The notes beneath the pieces were generated by a model. It saw only the letters and a list, made by a program, of their open reading frames with translations, was not told the origin of the DNA and did no database searches. A program made the translations under genes and the position numbers. A stretch of 64,000 nt of DNA from Candidatus Gastranaerophilales bacterium (GTDB lineage: Bacteria > Cyanobacteriota > Vampirovibrionia > Gastranaerophilales > Gastranaerophilaceae): assembly GCA_947625495.1 (NCBI GenBank), contig CANQOQ010000002.1:122306-186305 (forward strand), read 5' to 3'. Positions 58,446 to 64,000 of this stretch are shown one piece after another (within the stretch, counting starts at the first letter, position 1; the number at the start of each line of letters is the position of its first letter).

Positions 58446-59270
58446 ATGAAAAAAACATATAAAATAATAGGTTTTATAATACTGATACTCGGGGCAATAT
58501 CAATGCTTCTTCCGTTTATTTATATGATTTCATTATCATTTATGACTGATAAACAGATAATATCGGGAACGACTGAATTTATAGCTCATCCCTCTACTTT
58601 TGAGCATTATAAATATGTAGTAAATAACGTAGATATAATAAAATATTTTTATAACAGTATGTTCGTTGCAATTGCAACAACAATAGGTCAGGTATTAATT
58701 GCCTCAATGGCAGGGTACGCTTTTGCTCGATTTGAATTTAGATATAAAGAAATATTGTTCTTTCTAATCCTTGTATCAATGATGATACCGCCTCAGGTAA
58801 ATATAGTGCCTTTGTTTTTTATAATGAAACAGTTTCATTGGATAGATACATATTGGGCATTAATAGTTCCGGGGCTTTTTGGTGGGTTTGGAGTATTTAT
58901 GATGAGGCAGTGGTTTAAATCCATGCCTGATGATATGGAATCATCGGCGAAGATAGACGGGTGTAACACTTTTGAAGTGTTTTATAAAATAGCTCTGCCA
59001 TTGGCGCTTCCTGCAATTGTTACACTTGCTATATTTACATTTATTACAACATGGAACAGTTTTATGTGGCCGTTAATTGTGACAAATTCAGATTCTATGA
59101 GAACATTGCCTTTAGGATTAGCTAATTTTAAGGGAAGTTTTAGAGAAGTAACAGACTGGGGAGCATTAACCGCATATAGTGTAATTTGTTGTATTCCCGT
59201 TATAGGTGTGTTTTTACTTGGCAGAAAGTATTTTATAAACGATATTCTTTCGGGCGGAATAAAAGAGTAA
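58446..59270 (+). CDS. carbohydrate ABC transporter permease (MalG/UgpE-like), orphan
   Basis: Six TM helices and EAA loop (SAKIDGCNTFEVFYKIALPLALPA). No partner genes are nearby. Confidence 0.88.
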   Translation: MKKTYKIIGFIILILGAISMLLPFIYMISLSFMTDKQIISGTTEFIAHPSTFEHYKYVVNNVDIIKYFYNSMFVAIATTIGQVLIASMAGYAFARFEFRYKEILFFLILVSMMIPPQVNIVPLFFIMKQFHWIDTYWALIVPGLFGGFGVFMMRQWFKSMPDDMESSAKIDGCNTFEVFYKIALPLALPAIVTLAIFTFITTWNSFMWPLIVTNSDSMRTLPLGLANFKGSFREVTDWGALTAYSVICCIPVIGVFLLGRKYFINDILSGGIKE

Positions 59271-59293
59271 AATTTTAAATACTGATTAACAAA

Positions 59294-59768
59294 ATAATGT
59301 AATAATAATGAATATTTTTACAATTATTTACATACAGCTAAAATCATGTTCAAATCATGGTTTTAGCGGTTTTAAACTTTGCGAAAAGAGCTGATTTTAT
59401 TGATAAAGGATTGAAGAACTCAAAAAAAGATTTATACTGAAAATATAACAAACTTTAAAAAAAGACTATTGATAAATGGATGAGAATATACATTCCGTTG
59501 CTAACATAATAATGAAAAAAATATCAGGAAAGGAGAAAATAAATGGGAACTTGGGATGAGTCTGAACATCCACGTGATGACGAAGGGAAATTTACATATA
59601 AAAATGGAGGTAGTGATAGTGTTAAATCCGATGAAGAAAAAATGCAAAGACGAGCAGACCTTCTATATCCGTCAATGAAAGATAAAGAACCCAAAACAGA
59701 TTATTCAACTGTCGGACTTGAAAATTACAAAAAAGAAAAAGATTCTGTTACCGGCGGAGCTGCAAATA
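59294..59768 (+). repeat. 475-bp module copy 1 (249-bp leader plus the first 75 codons of the muramidase gene)
   Basis: Aligns colinearly with 61207-61680 with one indel and about a dozen substitutions by hand alignment. Confidence 0.9.
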
Positions 59769-60244
59769 CGGAAGATTGGCAAAAAGATAAGGATTTTAAT
59801 AAAATTTTAGAATATTTATATCCGCAAGAAGGAGGATATAGTAATAGAAAAGCAGATTTAGGCGGACCTACAAAACTTGGGGTTACTCAGACTACTTATG
59901 ACTGGTATAATAAACGTAATAAAATTCCGACTCAGAATGTGAAAAATATAACTAAAGGGGAAGCAACAAAAATATATTATGATTATTTTTGGAAAGAATC
60001 TGGTGCTAGTTCAATTAAAGATAAGGGTATGGCATTGATGTATTTTGATGCTGCCGTTAATCATGGTCCATATTATGCAAAAAAATATTATAAAGAATCA
60101 AATGGCAATTATAATAAGTTTGTTGAACTACGGAAACAACATTATGAGCGTATGAAAAATAATATACCTCAACAAAAAGAAAATTATAATGGTTGGATTA
60201 ACAGATTAAATAATATAGATAAATATATAGAAAAGAATTATTAA
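59543..60244 (+). CDS. GH108-like N-acetylmuramidase with conserved 75-aa N-terminal module (effector candidate 1)
   Basis: YPQEGGYSNRKADLGGPTKLGVTQ (GH108 EGGY catalytic motif). C-terminal YFD..VN.G / GW.NRL segment is PG_binding_3-like. RBS aggaaaggag. No signal peptide. Confidence 0.8.
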   Translation: MGTWDESEHPRDDEGKFTYKNGGSDSVKSDEEKMQRRADLLYPSMKDKEPKTDYSTVGLENYKKEKDSVTGGAANTEDWQKDKDFNKILEYLYPQEGGYSNRKADLGGPTKLGVTQTTYDWYNKRNKIPTQNVKNITKGEATKIYYDYFWKESGASSIKDKGMALMYFDAAVNHGPYYAKKYYKESNGNYNKFVELRKQHYERMKNNIPQQKENYNGWINRLNNIDKYIEKNY

Positions 60245-60251
60245 ATATAAA

Positions 60252-60671
60252 TTATTTGTTTATTTCACTTAAATATTTTCGGATAGTAATTAGTTTTTCT
60301 AAATATTGTTTTGAATTTTGGCATTTTATACTTGAACTTACTAAATATGGTTCTGCATAGTTCTGATTTTCAAATAAATTTTTTAATAATAAATTATTAT
60401 TTTTAATATATGTTTCCCAACTTAAATTAGACTCTGATAATAATTTATATTTATCCTTAGTAAGTATTTTTTTTAAAAGTTTTAATTCTTTATTGATTTC
60501 TTTATTGTATAAATTAATTGCTTGATAATTACATTCAGCCATATAAAAATCTGACTGATTGTTTGTATTTAGACAATTAAGTCTGGTTCTTTCTATATCA
60601 TCTGTTATATTAGCAAAAGAACAATTATTTGTTAATATCAAAATTATAAATACAATAAAAAACTTTTTCAT
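60252..60671 (-). CDS. secreted DUF1311/LprI-like protein (candidate muramidase immunity 1)
   Basis: Signal peptide MKKFFIVFIILILTNNCSFA. C..T......MAEC......Y.KEIN.....L......LL.ES...W..Y......C pattern of PF07007. ATG at 60671 preferred. Confidence 0.65.
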   Translation of the reverse strand: MKKFFIVFIILILTNNCSFANITDDIERTRLNCLNTNNQSDFYMAECNYQAINLYNKEINKELKLLKKILTKDKYKLLSESNLSWETYIKNNNLLLKNLFENQNYAEPYLVSSSIKCQNSKQYLEKLITIRKYLSEINK

Positions 60672-60769
60672 AAAAATAATTATAATAATTAGTATGTATA
60701 AAGACAATAGTAAATAAGTTAGGTTTAACTTCATCTAGAAAATATTAAACATTCAACAAGAAAACGTAA

Positions 60770-61138
60770 TTAAAATTCAAAAACAGGTTTTCTAAATTTA
60801 CGTTTTTCGTACCATCTAGCAAAGCGAAGTTTATTTTTGTAATCGTAAATATACTGTACTTTTTTATCTTTTAAACAAGAATACACTCCGCCTTTATTTT
60901 TAAAAAGAGCATAACTCCAATAATAGTGTTTAATAATTTTGAAGCAATTATTTTCATAAGCAAATTTTTTAACATAGTCAGGACTATCAGAAGCATCTAT
61001 TCTATCTAAAACATAATATTTATAGGCTTCATCTCCACTCATTTCTTCAAGCTCGGCAAGGGCTTTATTTGAAGACGAAGGAAAACAATTCAGTATAGAA
61101 ACCAAAATTACAGATAAAATGATAAAAAACTTTTTCAT
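60770..61138 (-). CDS. secreted/lipoprotein-like hypothetical protein
   Basis: Signal peptide MKKFFIILSVILVSILNC. Shares an upstream promoter module with the 62230-62769 gene. Confidence 0.55.
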   Translation of the reverse strand: MKKFFIILSVILVSILNCFPSSSNKALAELEEMSGDEAYKYYVLDRIDASDSPDYVKKFAYENNCFKIIKHYYWSYALFKNKGGVYSCLKDKKVQYIYDYKNKLRFARWYEKRKFRKPVFEF

Positions 61139-61210
61139 AGTAATAATTATAATAGTTCAAGTATAAAAAAACAATAGACAACAGCTTGTAGTTTTAATAC
61201 AACATAATAA
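61139..61210. repeat. conserved upstream (promoter) module of minus-strand island genes, copy 1
   Basis: aaaaaaacaatagaca[ag]cagcttgtagttttaatacaacataataa is repeated at 62796-62841 with one mismatch. The proximal part is more diverged. Confidence 0.8.
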
Positions 61211-61680
61211 TGTAATAATAATGAATATTTTTACAATCATTTACATACAGCTGAAATCATGTTCAAATCATGGTTTTAGCGGTTTTAAACTTTGCGAAAA
61301 GAGCTGATTTTATTGATAAAGGATTGAAGAACTCAAAAAAAGATTTATACTGAAAATATAATAAACTTTATAAAAAGACTATTGATAAAGGGATGTGAAT
61401 ATACATTGCGTTACTAACATAATAATGAAAAAATATCAGGAAAGGAGAAAATAAATGGGAACATGGGATGAGTCTGAGCATCCACGTGATGAAAATGGAA
61501 AATTTACATACAAAAACGGAGGTAGTGATAGTGTTAAATCCGAAGAAGAAAAAATGCAAAGACGAGCAGACCTTCTATATCCGTCAATGAAAGATAAAGA
61601 ACCAAAAACAGATTATTCAACTGTCGGACTTGAAAATTACAAAAAAGAAAAAGATTTTGTTACCGGCGGAGCTGCAAATA
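61207..61680 (+). repeat. 475-bp module copy 2
   Basis: See 59294-59768. Confidence 0.9.
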
Positions 61681-62201
61681 TTCAAATGGATAATGAAGAA
61701 TATATAAAAAATTTAAAAAATTTAGCTCAAACTGATTCGGATTTAAGATTTTTAAACAGTTTAGATTATATTTTAAAAGAAGAAGGAGGATATAATAATT
61801 ATAAAGGAGATAAACCAACAAATTTAGGAGTAACTCAAGATATTTATAATATATATAGAAAAGAAAAAGGTTTACCTTCCCAAGATGTGAAAAAAATTAA
61901 TATAAAAGAAGCAACTCAAATTTATCATAAATATTTTTGGAAACCATCTAAAGCAGATAAACTTCAACATCCTTTAGATTTAGTTTATTTTGATATGTAT
62001 ATTAATAGTAATCCTAGGGAAGCGAAAAATGTATTAAATCGTTCTGATAACGATGTTTATAAATTTATAGAAAATCGTAGAAAATTTTATGATGATGTTA
62101 TTAAGTCAAAACCAATAAAGGAAAAATTTAGAAAAGGCTGGTATAATCGACTTGATAATTTAAAAAAATATATTGATGAGTACTATGCGAGTATAAAATA
62201 A
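61455..62201 (+). CDS. GH108-like N-acetylmuramidase with the same N-terminal module and a diverged catalytic domain (effector candidate 2)
   Basis: First 75 aa are 71/75 identical to the 59543 gene. Then LKEEGGYNNYKGDKPTNLGVTQ, FWKPS, VYFD and GWYNRLDNLKKYI. Confidence 0.8.
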   Translation: MGTWDESEHPRDENGKFTYKNGGSDSVKSEEEKMQRRADLLYPSMKDKEPKTDYSTVGLENYKKEKDFVTGGAANIQMDNEEYIKNLKNLAQTDSDLRFLNSLDYILKEEGGYNNYKGDKPTNLGVTQDIYNIYRKEKGLPSQDVKKINIKEATQIYHKYFWKPSKADKLQHPLDLVYFDMYINSNPREAKNVLNRSDNDVYKFIENRRKFYDDVIKSKPIKEKFRKGWYNRLDNLKKYIDEYYASIK

Positions 62202-62215
62202 TTAAAGAATAAATT

Positions 62216-62245
62216 ACCTGATAACTCTATTATGAATTATCAGGT
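62216..62245. terminator. 9-bp inverted repeat spanning the convergent gene ends
   Basis: acctgataa (62216-62224) / ttatcaggt (62237-62245), 12-nt loop. It overlaps the stop codon of the minus-strand gene. Confidence 0.4.
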
Positions 62246-62769
62246 ATTCTGTCCGTATGAATTTTATAAACCCATTTTAAAAATTCTGCACGGTTTTTAA
62301 TTAATTCTTCATAATCACTTGCTGCTATATCAAAATACATTGTGCCTCCGTGATTAAAAATAAATTCATTAATAATATCATTATCTTTTTTACTTTGTTG
62401 TAACCATAGATTTTGACTGTCTTTAATGAGTTTATATTGTTCTTTTGTTGTTGATTGCTCCAATAATTTTATATATTTGTCTATTTCTTTTTCCCATTCT
62501 TTTGTTGCGTAATATATGCAATTTCTTGAATCTGCTGCATTATCAGTTTTATATATACAGCTTTGTTCGTTTATATCAATAGGATTGTCGAAATTTGTGA
62601 GTTTGTTATTTAATTCATTAATCAGTTTAACTTCTGCCTTTAATTTTTTATTTTCTGCTATTAAATTTGTATATTTTTTATCATCAATTGATTTTTTAAC
62701 AAAAAAACCTAGAGCAAAAGATGATAATAATAACAATAATGAAATTAATACAATAATAAGCTTTTTCAT
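62230..62769 (-). CDS. secreted DUF1311/LprI-like protein (candidate muramidase immunity 2)
   Basis: Signal/anchor MKKLIIVLISLLLLLSSFALGFF. C....(11)..C.....KEWEKEIDKY...L........L..SQ..W......GGTM......RAEFL fits PF07007 well. Confidence 0.75.
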   Translation of the reverse strand: MKKLIIVLISLLLLLSSFALGFFVKKSIDDKKYTNLIAENKKLKAEVKLINELNNKLTNFDNPIDINEQSCIYKTDNAADSRNCIYYATKEWEKEIDKYIKLLEQSTTKEQYKLIKDSQNLWLQQSKKDNDIINEFIFNHGGTMYFDIAASDYEELIKNRAEFLKWVYKIHTDRIPDNS

Positions 62770-62841
62770 AAGATAATTATAGTAATTCAATTTTAAAAAA
62801 ACAATAGACAGCAGCTTGTAGTTTTAATACAACATAATAAT
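62770..62841. repeat. conserved upstream (promoter) module, copy 2
   Basis: See 61139-61210. Confidence 0.8.
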
Positions 62842-62936
62842 AAAAAAATGTCATAAAAATTAGTACAAGCAGGTCGGGAATTACAAGAGCAAGAACAAAT
62901 AGAACCGTATTTTATAGTGTATTATGTTATAATACA

Positions 62937-63233
62937 TTGTCAATTATTGTGCCATTGCCATACGTAATACAATTTTATTCATTTAACGAAGTTGATATAA
63001 AAGATAATATACTTGAGATGTTTTTGCAATTAAGCATACCTACAATTATTGCAGCAATAATAAAAATAATGATTGAATTTCAAAAAGATGAAAATAAAAT
63101 AAAAAAATTAAATATTGTCAGGAAAATACTCAATATAATATCAGCAATTTATTTATTACTTTATGAACTCTTTCTTATATTTGTAATTATTGTAGTAAAG
63201 AGTATGGGGAATGCAGGTCCTTGGCAGAATTAA
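62937..63233 (+). CDS. possible small two-TM membrane protein
   Basis: TTG start directly after TGtTATAAT (62925-62933), with an alternative ATG at 63018. Two hydrophobic helices. Weak coding evidence. Confidence 0.3.
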   Translation: MSIIVPLPYVIQFYSFNEVDIKDNILEMFLQLSIPTIIAAIIKIMIEFQKDENKIKKLNIVRKILNIISAIYLLLYELFLIFVIIVVKSMGNAGPWQN

Positions 63234-63334
63234 TAATTCAAGTATTAAAAAATTAAATATAAAGTTTTAAATGGATTAATTGATAGAATGGCAAAAGAGA
63301 AAAAGTTATTTCTTACACCTGACGGAGAATAAAA

Positions 63335-63850
63335 TCACTTTATATCTTTTTCATATTTGCATAAAGCACTATAATATATTTCTCCATTAACAAACCCTGA
63401 ATAATCGGGACAAACTCCATAATCATTTATTTTGTCAGTCAATAATTTACCGTTTCTATCGTATTGTTTTATATGTATAAGACATAAAACATTTACATTA
63501 CAGTACGCTTCATATTTTATTAATTCATAATTTACCGAAACACCATCAACATCATATAAGGGATTTTCGACTGAATTAAATATTTTAAACCAACCCAGTA
63601 TTGAATACTTATTTTTAGTTATGGATTTTTTATCCAAATAAATATCTTTTGTTAATTGTAACCATTTCTCATCATTAGAAAGTTTGTAATTTGTTTCTGC
63701 TAAATGATTTATTTTGTCTTGTAAATATTTTCTTTCTGCATTCCAATCACTAATTTTCTCATCATCAACCGACTTTTTTACAAAAAAACCTAAAGTAAAA
63801 GACGATAATAATAACAATAATGATATTAATACAATAATAAGTTTTTTCAT
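63335..63850 (-). CDS. secreted protein, possibly Adhesin_E-like beta domain
   Basis: The N-terminal 30 aa are nearly identical to those of the 62230-62769 gene. C-terminal GWFKI....Y.....Y.C.....(L)......Y...GK........C pattern recalls surface-adhesin protein E-like domains (from memory). Confidence 0.5.
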   Translation of the reverse strand: MKKLIIVLISLLLLLSSFTLGFFVKKSVDDEKISDWNAERKYLQDKINHLAETNYKLSNDEKWLQLTKDIYLDKKSITKNKYSILGWFKIFNSVENPLYDVDGVSVNYELIKYEAYCNVNVLCLIHIKQYDRNGKLLTDKINDYGVCPDYSGFVNGEIYYSALCKYEKDIK

Positions 63851-63978
63851 AATGTAATTATAATAATTAATAAATACAATGACAATAGTTCAGTATATAG
63901 TTTGATTTGGGTTAGCGTAATTTAACAACAATAAAAAAGTAAGTTATTTCTTACACCGGATGATTAATAAAAACAATT

Positions 63979-64000
63979 CTAGTTTTTCTCATATTTACAT
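63979..64000 (-). CDS. 3' end of a further paralog of the 63335-63850 gene (runs off the window)
   Basis: Reverse translation gives ...CKYEKN-stop versus ...CKYEKDIK-stop. The shared 3' flank aagttatttcttacacc lies at 63941 and 63303. Confidence 0.3.

Follow-up and report, generated by a model that had tools for sequence, protein, structure and literature searches.

An Island of Probable Peptidoglycan-Targeting Effector/Immunity Cassettes in a Gastranaerophilales Genome, with a Candidate Phage Cargo Leader

Introduction

The locus considered here is an island of genes for GH108-type muramidases and small exported proteins, at positions 59,271 to 64,000 of a 64,000-nucleotide stretch of DNA from a Candidatus Gastranaerophilales bacterium (contig CANQOQ010000002.1). 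We refer to this whole stretch as the window, and coordinates are counted from its first letter. The closest described systems come from phages and from type VI secretion systems (T6SS). For MuF-type toxins of temperate phages and the "phage capsid-like" delivery class of polymorphic toxins, encapsidation was proposed rather than demonstrated (PMC3482391; PMC5576092). In T6SS loci, GH108 or lysozyme-like effectors lie beside genes for LprI proteins with signal peptides, which are the predicted immunity proteins, and orphan immunity genes also occur, as in the Pantoea hcp/vgrG islands (PMC9796082) and with the WHIX effectors (PMC12135965). In phage T4 the tail lysozyme gp5 is neutralised by Spackle, a periplasmic inhibitor with a signal peptide (PMC7677548).

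An earlier note, made from the letters of the window alone, had read the island as a polymorphic system of muramidases and LprI-like inhibitors. We have followed up this proposal with profile, structure and homologue searches, with a survey of related loci in other genomes and with an analysis of phage contigs.

Results

Two Predicted GH108 Muramidases and Their Convergent Partners

The predicted open reading frames (ORFs) reported in the earlier note are present at their coordinates. Two plus-strand genes encode the enzymes, which we call effectors, and each faces a minus-strand gene for a candidate immunity protein. The features of these genes, including two short N-terminal motifs and a TGGAAN junction that are taken up below, are as follows.

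59543-60244, plus strand: effector 1, 233 residues, with a GH108 muramidase domain at residues 78-233 (Pfam GH108, E 6.8e-22)
59543-59611, plus strand: HPRD leader motif of effector 1, residues 1-23
59651-59686, plus strand: scaffold-tail-like motif of effector 1, RADLLYPSMKDK, residues 37-48
59750-59767, plus strand: TGGAAN junction of effector 1, residues 70-75
61455-62201, plus strand: effector 2, 248 residues, with the same N-terminal module and a divergent GH108 domain (Pfam GH108, E 2.8e-18)
61455-61523, 61563-61598 and 61662-61679, plus strand: leader, LYPSM motif and TGGAAN junction of effector 2
60252-60671, minus strand: immunity candidate 1, LprI/DUF1311-like, 139 residues with a cleavable-type signal peptide, family I2 (LprI, E 0.004)
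62230-62769, minus strand: immunity candidate 2, membrane-anchored LprI/DUF1311 protein, 179 residues, family I2 (PF07007, E 5e-9)

The C-terminal ~155 residues of both effectors correspond to the GH108 domain. Pfam PF05838 scores effectors 1 and 2 at 78.2 and 66.7 bits, against a curated cut-off of 21.2, and the EGGY motif (E96, G97, G98 and Y99) is nearly invariant in an alignment of 30 sequences, being found as QEGGY or EEGGY in the window proteins. In the AlphaFold2 model of effector 1 the predicted local distance difference test (pLDDT) exceeds 90 for residues 78-233, and the leader is weakly structured or disordered, with disordered linkers. The best Foldseek matches are SagA (7dnp), TtsA (6v40) and NMB1012 (2is5), with a probability of 1.0 and target TM-scores of 0.68 and 0.63. 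By profile and motif, and for effector 1 also by predicted fold, the two are putative GH108 muramidases. PG_binding_3 gives a weak, sub-threshold match in the second effector only (E 0.0017). Both N-termini are highly charged and lack a hydrophobic signal sequence, as the earlier note had recognised in calling these genes GH108-type without signal peptides. The domain of effector 1 is 44% identical, end to end, to a stand-alone prophage GH108 protein of 156 residues (locus L191); that of effector 2 is 36% identical to the same protein.

The two partners had both been assigned to DUF1311. For 62230-62769 this assignment holds, with an LprI score of 36.9 bits against a cut-off of 22; the protein of 60252-60671 scores 17.8 bits and falls below the cut-off on its own, although it clusters with the same BLAST family. 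Both proteins are members of a single BLAST family (I2), in which seven of the eight members match LprI at E<0.01. The family alignment has an N-terminal signal peptide or transmembrane anchor and two invariant cysteines, and its profile matches the DUF1311-like structure 6ar7 in the PDB (E 3e-9), as does the protein of 62230-62769 by itself (E 2.6e-5). The stop codons of effector and partner are 7 nt apart in the first pair and 28 nt in the second. The longest ORF of the first partner begins at 60734. We prefer the start at 60671, the one assumed earlier, because this is the gene call in a sister assembly and because it is accompanied by a promoter-like site.

Polymorphic Toxin Architecture and Cognate Pairing in Relatives

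A first homologue search found the N-terminal module of ~75 residues also on GH24, Lipase_3 and PF15644 (papain-fold toxin 1/glutamine deamidase) domains and on unknown domains; a second, with the 77-residue module alone, gave three proteins and added little. A profile of the module was then compared with species-representative genomes, giving 72 loci, mostly in gut metagenome-assembled genomes (MAGs) of Gastranaerophilales/Melainabacteria and often several per genome. Most of these leader loci are scattered beside unrelated chromosomal genes, and they are not conserved single-copy genes across the order. In a Pfam census of 51 leader proteins the C-terminal domains were Gln_amidase (8), Phage_lysozyme (7), Peptidase_M23 (5), GH108 (5), LPD3 (3) and ATLF (1), with ~20 proteins having no match. 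In related genomes the module is thus also fused to GH24, M23, Tox-PL1 and lipase domains.

One leader protein carries a serum amyloid A domain (PF00277, E 3e-18) and another the anthrax-lethal-factor-like ATLF domain. The leader protein of locus L038, from a "Treponema sp." MAG, has the same upstream-extended N-terminus as that of L022, a roe-deer rumen MAG with several leader loci, and its 5.5-kb contig is probably misbinned.

Within the window, the upstream region and the first 75 codons of the effector genes form a direct repeat (59288-59768 and 61201-61680, repeat D2) of 96% identity. The DNA identity between the two copies falls from ~95% to ~60% immediately after the TGGAAN codons. The same break is seen on comparison with the sister MAG L004, where this chromosomal site is occupied by a GH24 allele. 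An N-terminal module that stays constant, a junction for recombination and a toxin domain that can be exchanged together constitute a polymorphic toxin architecture.

We next asked which genes accompany each class of toxin. The toxin domains and the small downstream genes of all the loci were clustered, and the labels were permuted 20000 times. The first downstream gene in each class was as follows.

GH108 class: convergent LprI-like gene, family I2, in 5/5, plus two GH108 remnants
Tox-PL1 class (BLAST cluster E1): family I1, in 8/8
GH24 class: family I0, in 5/6
M23 class (BLAST cluster E2): mostly family I3, in 3/5

In total 21 of the 24 pairs of toxin class and partner family are modal, a number that was reached in none of the 20000 permutations. 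The partners have a signal peptide or an N-terminal membrane anchor, and occur in tandem arrays of up to four paralogs. Of the features of polymorphic toxins sensu Zhang et al. (2012), interchangeable C-termini, a covarying adjacent immunity gene and orphan or displaced toxin ends are found here. As to a trafficking route set by the N-terminal module, the motifs shared with phage proteins and the place of cassettes in prophage head modules, both described below, point to encapsidation. From these sequence comparisons, the description of the loci as polymorphic peptidoglycan-targeting effector/immunity cassettes is well supported. The genomic covariation with GH108 would make the LprI-type partners candidate muramidase immunity proteins. 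The system envisaged in the earlier note is therefore polymorphic as proposed, but it is not specific to muramidases and LprI, since other toxin classes have other partners.

Further Cassettes, Orphans, and Toxin Remnants

Once the partner families had been defined in relatives, further cassettes could be made out in the remainder of the island.

60770-61138, minus strand: orphan immunity gene, 122 residues with a signal peptide, family I1, elsewhere the partner of Tox-PL1/Gln_amidase effectors
62860-62934, plus strand: 3' remnant of an effector of unknown class, "E0" (tblastn, 60% identity to the C-terminus of the E0 protein of L023, E 2.6e-5)
62937-63233, plus strand: small transmembrane protein, family I9, same-strand partner of E0 effectors (57-60% identity to the I9 proteins of L012 and L023)
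63255-63332, plus strand: 3' remnant of a GH24 lysozyme effector, the last 25 codons and stop (88% identity to the C-terminus of P0032, E 2e-8)
63335-63850, minus strand: membrane-anchored protein, 171 residues, family I0, the partner family of GH24 effectors (2 nt between its stop codon and that of the GH24 remnant)
63941-63967, plus strand: second GH24 3' remnant (KLFLTPDD and stop; repeat D6, read from the sequence)

No Tox-PL1 effector adjoins 60770-61138 in the window, and its protein has no Pfam match. The I1 gene is the convergent neighbor in every member of cluster E1, which includes P0038 (PF15644). The E0 remnant at 62860-62934 has a longer match to L032 (E 1e-8) that is broken by stop codons. 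The adjoining I9 gene matches the I9 proteins of L012 and L023 with E values of 1e-24 to 3e-29, and its DNA is 79-82% identical to those loci; it seems to have lost its N-terminal codons and to use a TTG start. The C-terminal sequence of P0032 that is matched by the first GH24 remnant is KYKVLNGLIDRMAKEKKLFLTPDGE. The I0 gene that faces this remnant shares a transmembrane/promoter module with the second LprI-type gene (62593-62807 and 63674-63888, 74% identity). The region of the second GH24 remnant matches 63303-63362, and the GH24 effector of an IMG/VR contig (L178) ends in LFLTPDD. After this remnant comes one more convergent gene, of which the window includes just the 3' end.

Displaced toxin ends with their immunity genes thus occupy 62860-63233, 63255-63850 and 63941-64000, in addition to the orphan immunity gene at 60770-61138. 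Polymorphic toxin loci are typically marked by such displaced 3' ends that have kept the immunity gene. Further small secreted proteins had been noticed in this part of the island and they are indeed present, but they belong to families I1, I9 (a transmembrane protein) and I0 and are not DUF1311 paralogs. The gene that runs off the end of the window, supposed earlier to be another paralog, follows the second GH24 remnant.

The HPRD Leader Motif and Polyvalent Proteins

The first motif of the leader has the form WxExxHPRDxxGKF. A profile of residues 1-51 was compared with 1.84 billion representative proteins and gave 731 matches. Some of the matched proteins are small and begin with the motif at their extreme N-terminus. 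Many others are of 1000-7300 residues, and in these [DEK][WF]xExxHPRDxxG[KRQ][FW] is repeated from 3 to at least 15 times between domains. The large proteins carry Phage_Mu_F, Zeta_toxin, ART-PolyVal and ADP-ribosyltransferase (ADPrib_exo_Tox) domains, and by this composition they are polyvalent proteins of phages and conjugative elements (PMC5512222). The MuF domain was found only in these large proteins that share the HPRD motif. In P0123 (7334 residues) and others, WxExxHPR[DG]xxG[KR][FW] is present in at least 15 copies at a spacing of roughly 200-450 residues, as if marking every cargo module.

On IMG/VR contigs, small motif proteins are interleaved with genes for portal, MuF-like head-morphogenesis, protease and capsid proteins (e.g., L076), and the order and sizes of the ORFs alone suggest the same arrangement in the Firmicutes loci L057 and L062. 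The motif is abundant also in proteins of phages and integrative and conjugative elements (ICEs) of Gram-positive hosts.

Pfam, PHROGs and NCBIfam contain no model of the leader, the sole trace being a weak match of residues 3-18 to phrog_30637. This is the profile of a portal-motif-protease fusion, in which the HPRD motif comes right after the portal domain (profile positions 288-303; L086:11212-13206), and in L076:39-2580 a motif protein overlaps the end of the portal gene. A motif linked to the portal in these ways would fit with an attachment of cargo to the side of the portal that faces the capsid interior.

The Scaffold-Tail Motif and a Podophage Family

Six Melainabacteria loci have a leader-effector cassette and a phage terminase on the same contig, and in five of the six the cassette comes directly 3' of the gene for the large terminase subunit. 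Between the terminase and a PF12236 portal of L037 lie a leader-M23 effector and its partner. This portal retrieved 49 IMG/VR contigs, of which the full-length ones are 35-43 kb. The order of their genes is small and large terminase, a gene of ~67 residues, portal, an acidic phrog_458 protein of ~200-255 residues and a PF20911 major capsid protein, followed by Bbp16, tail tubular proteins and internal virion proteins. Judged by gene content and order, this is a temperate phage family with a BPP-1/epsilon15-like podophage layout.

The phrog_458 protein occupies the position of a scaffold, between portal and major capsid protein. Its C-terminal tails fall into three groups, REDILYP[ST]M, [AP]A[DQE][IV]LYG and TA[ESA]DWYP[SNE]M, and every complete member of the 48 homologues found ends in one of these tails or a related one, two homologues being truncated where their contigs end. 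The second motif of the leader, R[AE]D[IL]LYP[ST]M, is the same peptide, present once or twice in the linkers of the effectors. It is found as RADLLYPSMKDK in both window proteins and as SREDILYPTMKDK elsewhere; others have TPADILYG or RPADILYH.

We examined the specificity of this likeness with a strict pattern, [DN][ILT]L[YF]P[STNDI][MT], and a looser one, [RP][AE]DIL[YF]. The strict pattern occurs in 15 of 60 leader proteins. The same loci have 1021 other ORFs, of which 4 contain it, and each of these four is an effector variant without the leader. On contigs of the portal-family phages it is present in 17 of 915 ORFs, in each case as the very C-terminal end of phrog_458, and it was absent from the 984 ORFs of unrelated phage contigs. 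The looser pattern is found in 31 of 40 non-redundant leader proteins, compared with 15 of 437 background ORFs (p 2e-29). There are two classes of effector motif, which mirror the two main classes of phrog_458 tail. In the few cases that could be checked, the class of the effector follows the lineage of the adjacent prophage (class 1 in L028, L031 and L036; class 2 in L037 and L058). Neither this motif nor the HPRD motif was described in the literature that we searched, including the papers on polyvalent proteins and MuF toxins.

Cassettes in the Terminase-Portal Slot of Prophages

Cassettes directly after the terminase large subunit, or between terminase and portal, are present in L021, L028, L031, L036, L037, L178, L183, L185 and L186. 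The content of this slot varies between related phages.

L189: empty
L191: plain GH108 protein of 156 residues, with neither leader nor partner
L183, L186: E0-type protein and a multi-transmembrane protein
L178: GH24 effector and membrane partners
L185: Tox-PL1 effector with LFPTM/LYPSM motifs, an I1 gene and an orphan LprI gene
L021, L028, L031, L036, L037: leader-effector cassettes

The phage has a protein of 742-745 residues at the position expected for an internal virion protein, and its M23 domain shares 35-41% identity with those of the M23 effectors. This similarity, together with that of the window domains to the GH108 protein of L191, makes the enzymes look phage-derived.

The E0 proteins of prophages (L183:11387-13089; L186:11365-13100) end in a conserved ...GR.LQ..G.I.PYF.IY.V.I motif, and are encoded in an overlapping operon with a polytopic membrane protein of 248-262 residues. 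They may represent a toxin with its immunity protein, or else a new lysin with its holin. In another prophage, two minus-strand genes for proteins with signal peptides (L187:17213-17770 and L187:20190-20567) lie inside the plus-strand tail/internal-virion module, and these may be further immunity-like morons.

The podophage gene cluster is located downstream of rlmH, which encodes a SPOUT methyltransferase (L183, L191, L031 and L036; L186 has a different upstream neighborhood). Between L183 and L031/L036 the housekeeping proteins are 65-75% identical and the terminases 83-87% identical. The rlmH position could be either a conserved attachment site or that of an old, vertically inherited element. 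We considered on these grounds that the element might be domesticated, and set the idea aside given the serine recombinase of L133, which makes site-specific integration equally likely; this enzyme, read from its N-terminal sequence, is encoded beside packaging genes.

Layout and Setting of the Island

The island lies 3' of a dcw-type block (murD, ftsW, murG and folC) and a lone ABC permease, and the G+C content drops there from about 0.32 to 0.18-0.25. It contains two intact enzymes, three toxin remnants and six partner genes from five families. Scans of the window for tRNA and Rfam families were empty. Several sequence modules are reused, as the earlier note had seen: besides the 96% direct repeat and the 74% pair, a 56-nt promoter module occurs four times.

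59288-59542, plus strand: upstream module copy 1, promoter/5' leader of the effector gene (96% identity to 61201-61454)
61201-61454, plus strand: upstream module copy 2 (repeat D2)
60655-60710, minus strand: 56-nt promoter module (repeat family D4), which stands ahead of all four minus-strand immunity genes; the other copies are at 61122-61177, 62752-62807 and 63833-63888

The first upstream module shares ~96% identity with its counterpart at this locus of the sister MAG L004 and has a promoter-like site at 59317-59344, by consensus match only. Promoter-like sites in the 56-nt modules are TTGTCT-17-TATAAT at 60707-60679 and TTGTCA-17-TATAAT at 63885-63857. The stop codons of convergent effector and immunity genes are 2-28 nt apart (60244-60252, 62201-62230 and 63332-63335), and the single hairpin between convergent genes, at 62215-62246, overlaps the end of one gene. 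The transcripts must therefore overlap, and this could provide antisense coupling of toxin and immunity expression.

The permease gene directly 5' of the island (58446-59270; BPD_transp_1, E 5e-23) is accompanied by neither an ATPase nor a binding-protein gene, and the arrangement is kept in L004. In sister assemblies the island ends with a degraded GH24 paralog and another I1 gene, followed by typA/bipA. Assemblies made from short reads are interrupted within the repeated promoter/leader module; L003 stops at about window position 61308, and many leader loci are at contig ends. Such islands are consequently fragmented in a systematic way, and are probably under-counted in MAGs.

Discussion

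A Proposed Mechanism

Our preferred explanation, to which we give a probability of about 0.5, is that the effectors are enzyme cargo loaded into capsids, that the partners are exported immunity proteins, and that both belong to the accessory pool of a temperate podophage family infecting Gastranaerophilales. Each effector would be a complete phage-type envelope enzyme behind a largely disordered N-terminal module of ~75 residues. The tail-mimic peptide, possibly together with the HPRD motif, would recruit the enzyme into assembling procapsids, the HPRD motif perhaps being a more general docking or processing element. On infection of the next cell the enzyme would leave the capsid together with the DNA and enter the envelope, and in the periplasm it would cut peptidoglycan, thereby aiding entry or damaging non-immune cells. 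Periplasmic partners, either with signal peptides or membrane anchored, would neutralise an incoming enzyme of their own class, the LprI-like proteins acting on GH108. Kin and lysogens would thus be protected, by immunity or superinfection exclusion of the kind provided by T4 Spackle against the gp5 lysozyme. Recombination at TGGAAN would swap cassettes of toxin plus immunity gene, leaving orphan immunity genes and toxin 3' stubs behind. In this picture the sequences show the identities of the domains, the reuse of modules, the covariation of toxin and partner, the remnants, the sharing of motifs with its specificity and, in relatives, the place of cassettes between terminase and portal; loading, ejection into the periplasm, inhibition by the partners and the choice of phage that serves this genome are inferred.

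A broader version of the idea is put forward more tentatively, and we think it somewhat doubtful. The module would be a portable bipartite signal for loading cargo into capsids, formed from a pan-phage HPRD element and a lineage-specific mimic of the scaffold tail. Temperate podophages of gut Melainabacteria would use it to inject interchangeable envelope-degrading enzymes. The chromosomes of the hosts would be a store of exchangeable cassettes of enzyme and inhibitor, and the arrays of inhibitors in the host would be a form of anti-phage and anti-kin immunity that blocks entry. If the HPRD element were such a signal, this would also explain the punctuation of the polyvalent proteins.

Several observations weigh against capsid loading. 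The role of the scaffold tail, in capsid binding or as a protease site, is assumed by analogy with P22, T7, HK97 and encapsulin systems, and the PHROGs label for the phrog_458 family is "protease." Occupants of the slot within phages are often leaderless (the GH108 protein of L191; the E0 proteins of L183 and L186). No HPRD-motif protein was found within 10 kb of the portal in any of the 49 IMG/VR contigs of the phage family, and we dropped for this reason the idea that the family's own virion proteins use the motif. A tblastn search of the 64-kb window with the terminase, portal and neighboring phage proteins found nothing, and with no phage structural gene in the window the cognate phage of this genome is unproven. 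Among the best 120 of 2244 terminase homologues none was placed on a contig of the window contig's length (220,007 bp), a result that says little either way. Nor would one obviously expect virion cargo to be encoded by two intact genes that have promoters of their own and lie outside any prophage. Lastly, the covariation statistics are optimistic, because related MAGs are not independent samples.

Alternative Explanations

The cassettes could be genuine effector/immunity pairs that leave the cell by a cellular route, either through an unrecognised secretion system that reads the HPRD motif or by release on lysis followed by colicin- or pesticin-like uptake; their likeness to phage proteins would then mean no more than that the parts had come from phages. 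The architecture and covariation hold whatever the route, most loci are scattered beside unrelated chromosomal genes, and the island itself stands between housekeeping genes with its own promoters and with no phage genes within 64 kb. The disordered N-terminal region resembles bacteriocin translocation domains, pesticin with Pim is a precedent for periplasmic immunity to a muramidase toxin, and LprI-type immunity has been predicted for lysozyme-like T6SS effectors. However, the effectors contain no secretion-system marker domain (T6SS genes elsewhere in the genome lay outside this search), and the abundance of the leader motif in Gram-positive phage and ICE proteins argues against a signal specific for TonB or the outer membrane. 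The second motif is otherwise exclusive to the scaffold-like tail of a phage, and cassettes lie recurrently between terminase and portal. On this balance we consider a cellular route unlikely, although it deserves to be taken seriously. The export route, for which the earlier note had no candidate, now has a lead in the two motifs shared with phages and in the terminase-portal cassettes of relatives.

A quite different possibility is that the effectors are endolysin variants stranded in a decayed prophage, with the partners as spanin- or antiholin-like lysis accessories. Endolysins classically have GH108, GH24 or M23 domains, the window proteins are labelled endolysin in PHROGs, and the effectors lack a signal peptide, as do holin-dependent endolysins; there is also a weak NCBIfam match to "holin-associated N-acetylmuramidase." Some partners have an N-terminal transmembrane segment and a coiled coil, like i-spanins. 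A lysis cassette flanked by structural genes, as contemplated in the earlier note, is not found in the window, where no terminase, portal, capsid or holin gene is present, but it is approached in relatives, in which the slot of an intact prophage can hold a plain GH108 protein without partner that resembles the endolysin of the phage and is 44% identical to a window domain. The number of enzymes, remnants and partner families in the island speaks against a lysis cassette, and the partner family tracks the enzyme class, with arrays of 3-4 paralogs, unlike spanins. The GH108 partners match LprI, a lysozyme-inhibitor family, and partners are convergent with a promoter module of their own; the toxin classes extend to Tox-PL1, lipase, ATLF-like and unknown domains, and an endolysin needs no conserved leader of 75 residues. 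A stranded endolysin is thus improbable. Still less probable, to the point of being barely credible, are housekeeping or specialised peptidoglycan-remodelling muramidases of the TtsA/SagA type, opening the wall to make room for a machine or to let proteins out, held in check by periplasmic inhibitors and playing no part in conflict. These enzymes are the best structural matches, and the island follows the dcw-folC cell-wall block. Yet the extreme polymorphism, the replacement of alleles between sister genomes, the orphan partners and the remnants would be unexpected for housekeeping genes, the same leader is found on unrelated toxin domains, and no machine genes are adjacent.

Implications

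If capsid loading is correct, the uncultured gut lineage Melainabacteria has a polymorphic effector/immunity system in this island, for which we found no earlier description, although the literature was not searched systematically. It would also give a testable function to a short and extremely conserved motif, present in hundreds of copies in the polyvalent proteins of phages and conjugative elements, for which we found no name in the searchable literature. Mimicry of the scaffold tail would provide a rule by which effectors delivered by virions could be predicted from sequence, and phage protein cargo engineered. Arrays of periplasmic inhibitors of lysozymes, peptidases and amidases could then serve as a layer of immunity at the level of entry. 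Even on a conservative reading, many genomes document a specific pairing of LprI-type proteins with GH108 enzymes.

Comparison with Known Systems

The muramidases invite comparison with TtsA of S. Typhi and SagA of Brucella, with which they share the fold and catalytic motif. Those are single conserved genes for toxin release or for assembly of a type IV secretion system, with no leader, polymorphism or immunity partner. Pesticin, a muramidase with the immunity protein Pim, and colicin M, which blocks peptidoglycan synthesis, likewise have no signal peptide and an unstructured N-terminus, and their periplasmic immunity proteins are encoded alongside. The island effectors differ in having no receptor-binding or TonB-box domain, and in a leader motif that is also found in Gram-positive phage proteins.

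Short peptides that target proteins to capsids are known as the targeting sequence of the T4 internal proteins, the C-terminal tail of the HK97 protease, the C-terminus of the P22 scaffold and the cargo-loading peptides of encapsulins. The analogy is that a short head-assembly peptide would direct an unrelated protein into an HK97-fold shell. In the present effectors, however, the peptide is internal and sometimes duplicated, being C-terminal in the scaffold-like protein, and its binding to PF20911 is putative. T4 gp5 and Spackle offer a working analogy for the partners, in that a lysozyme delivered by a virion would meet a periplasmic inhibitor. There is no sequence relation, a PHROG "spackle" match (E 0.25) being noise; gp5 is a structural tail protein rather than capsid cargo, and T4 has no polymorphic cassettes.

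T6SS pairs have in common with the island a GH108 or lysozyme-like toxin, a neighboring LprI protein with a signal peptide and orphan immunity genes. The earlier note did not know the GH108/LprI pairing as a described one; it is not new, as it had already been predicted for T6SS islands (PMC9796082; PMC12135965). The island proteins differ in containing no VgrG, PAAR, Hcp, MIX, FIX, WHIX or DUF4123 domain (T6SS genes elsewhere in the window and genome were not searched), in having another N-terminal module, in a convergent rather than operonic arrangement and in their link to phages.

The polyvalent proteins (PMC5512222) share the HPRD motif, and LPD3 stands behind the same leader in some small proteins. 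The island effectors, by contrast, are small proteins with a single enzyme domain and a cognate immunity gene, and they have one copy of the motif, at the extreme N-terminus. With MuF and other phage capsid-like toxins the cassettes share a conserved N-terminus, a variable C-terminal toxin (Tox-PL1 among them), an adjacent immunity gene and, in at least nine related loci though not in the window, a position in the head-assembly region of a prophage near portal or terminase. They are not members of the MuF toxin family, because they have no MuF domain (PF04233 is absent from the island proteins at E<=1), and the constant part comprises only ~75 residues with two short motifs. The immunity proteins of MuF toxins are cytoplasmic, whereas here the toxins would act on the envelope, and the candidate immunity proteins would be located in the periplasm or bound to the membrane; the host is a diderm melainabacterium, and many cassettes lie outside prophages. 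In its manner of working the system would most resemble the phage-capsid class of polymorphic toxins. What is new, as far as we have found, is the minimal bipartite leader, its link to both the polyvalent-protein motif and the scaffold tail, the repertoire of periplasmic immunity proteins and the lineage of the host.

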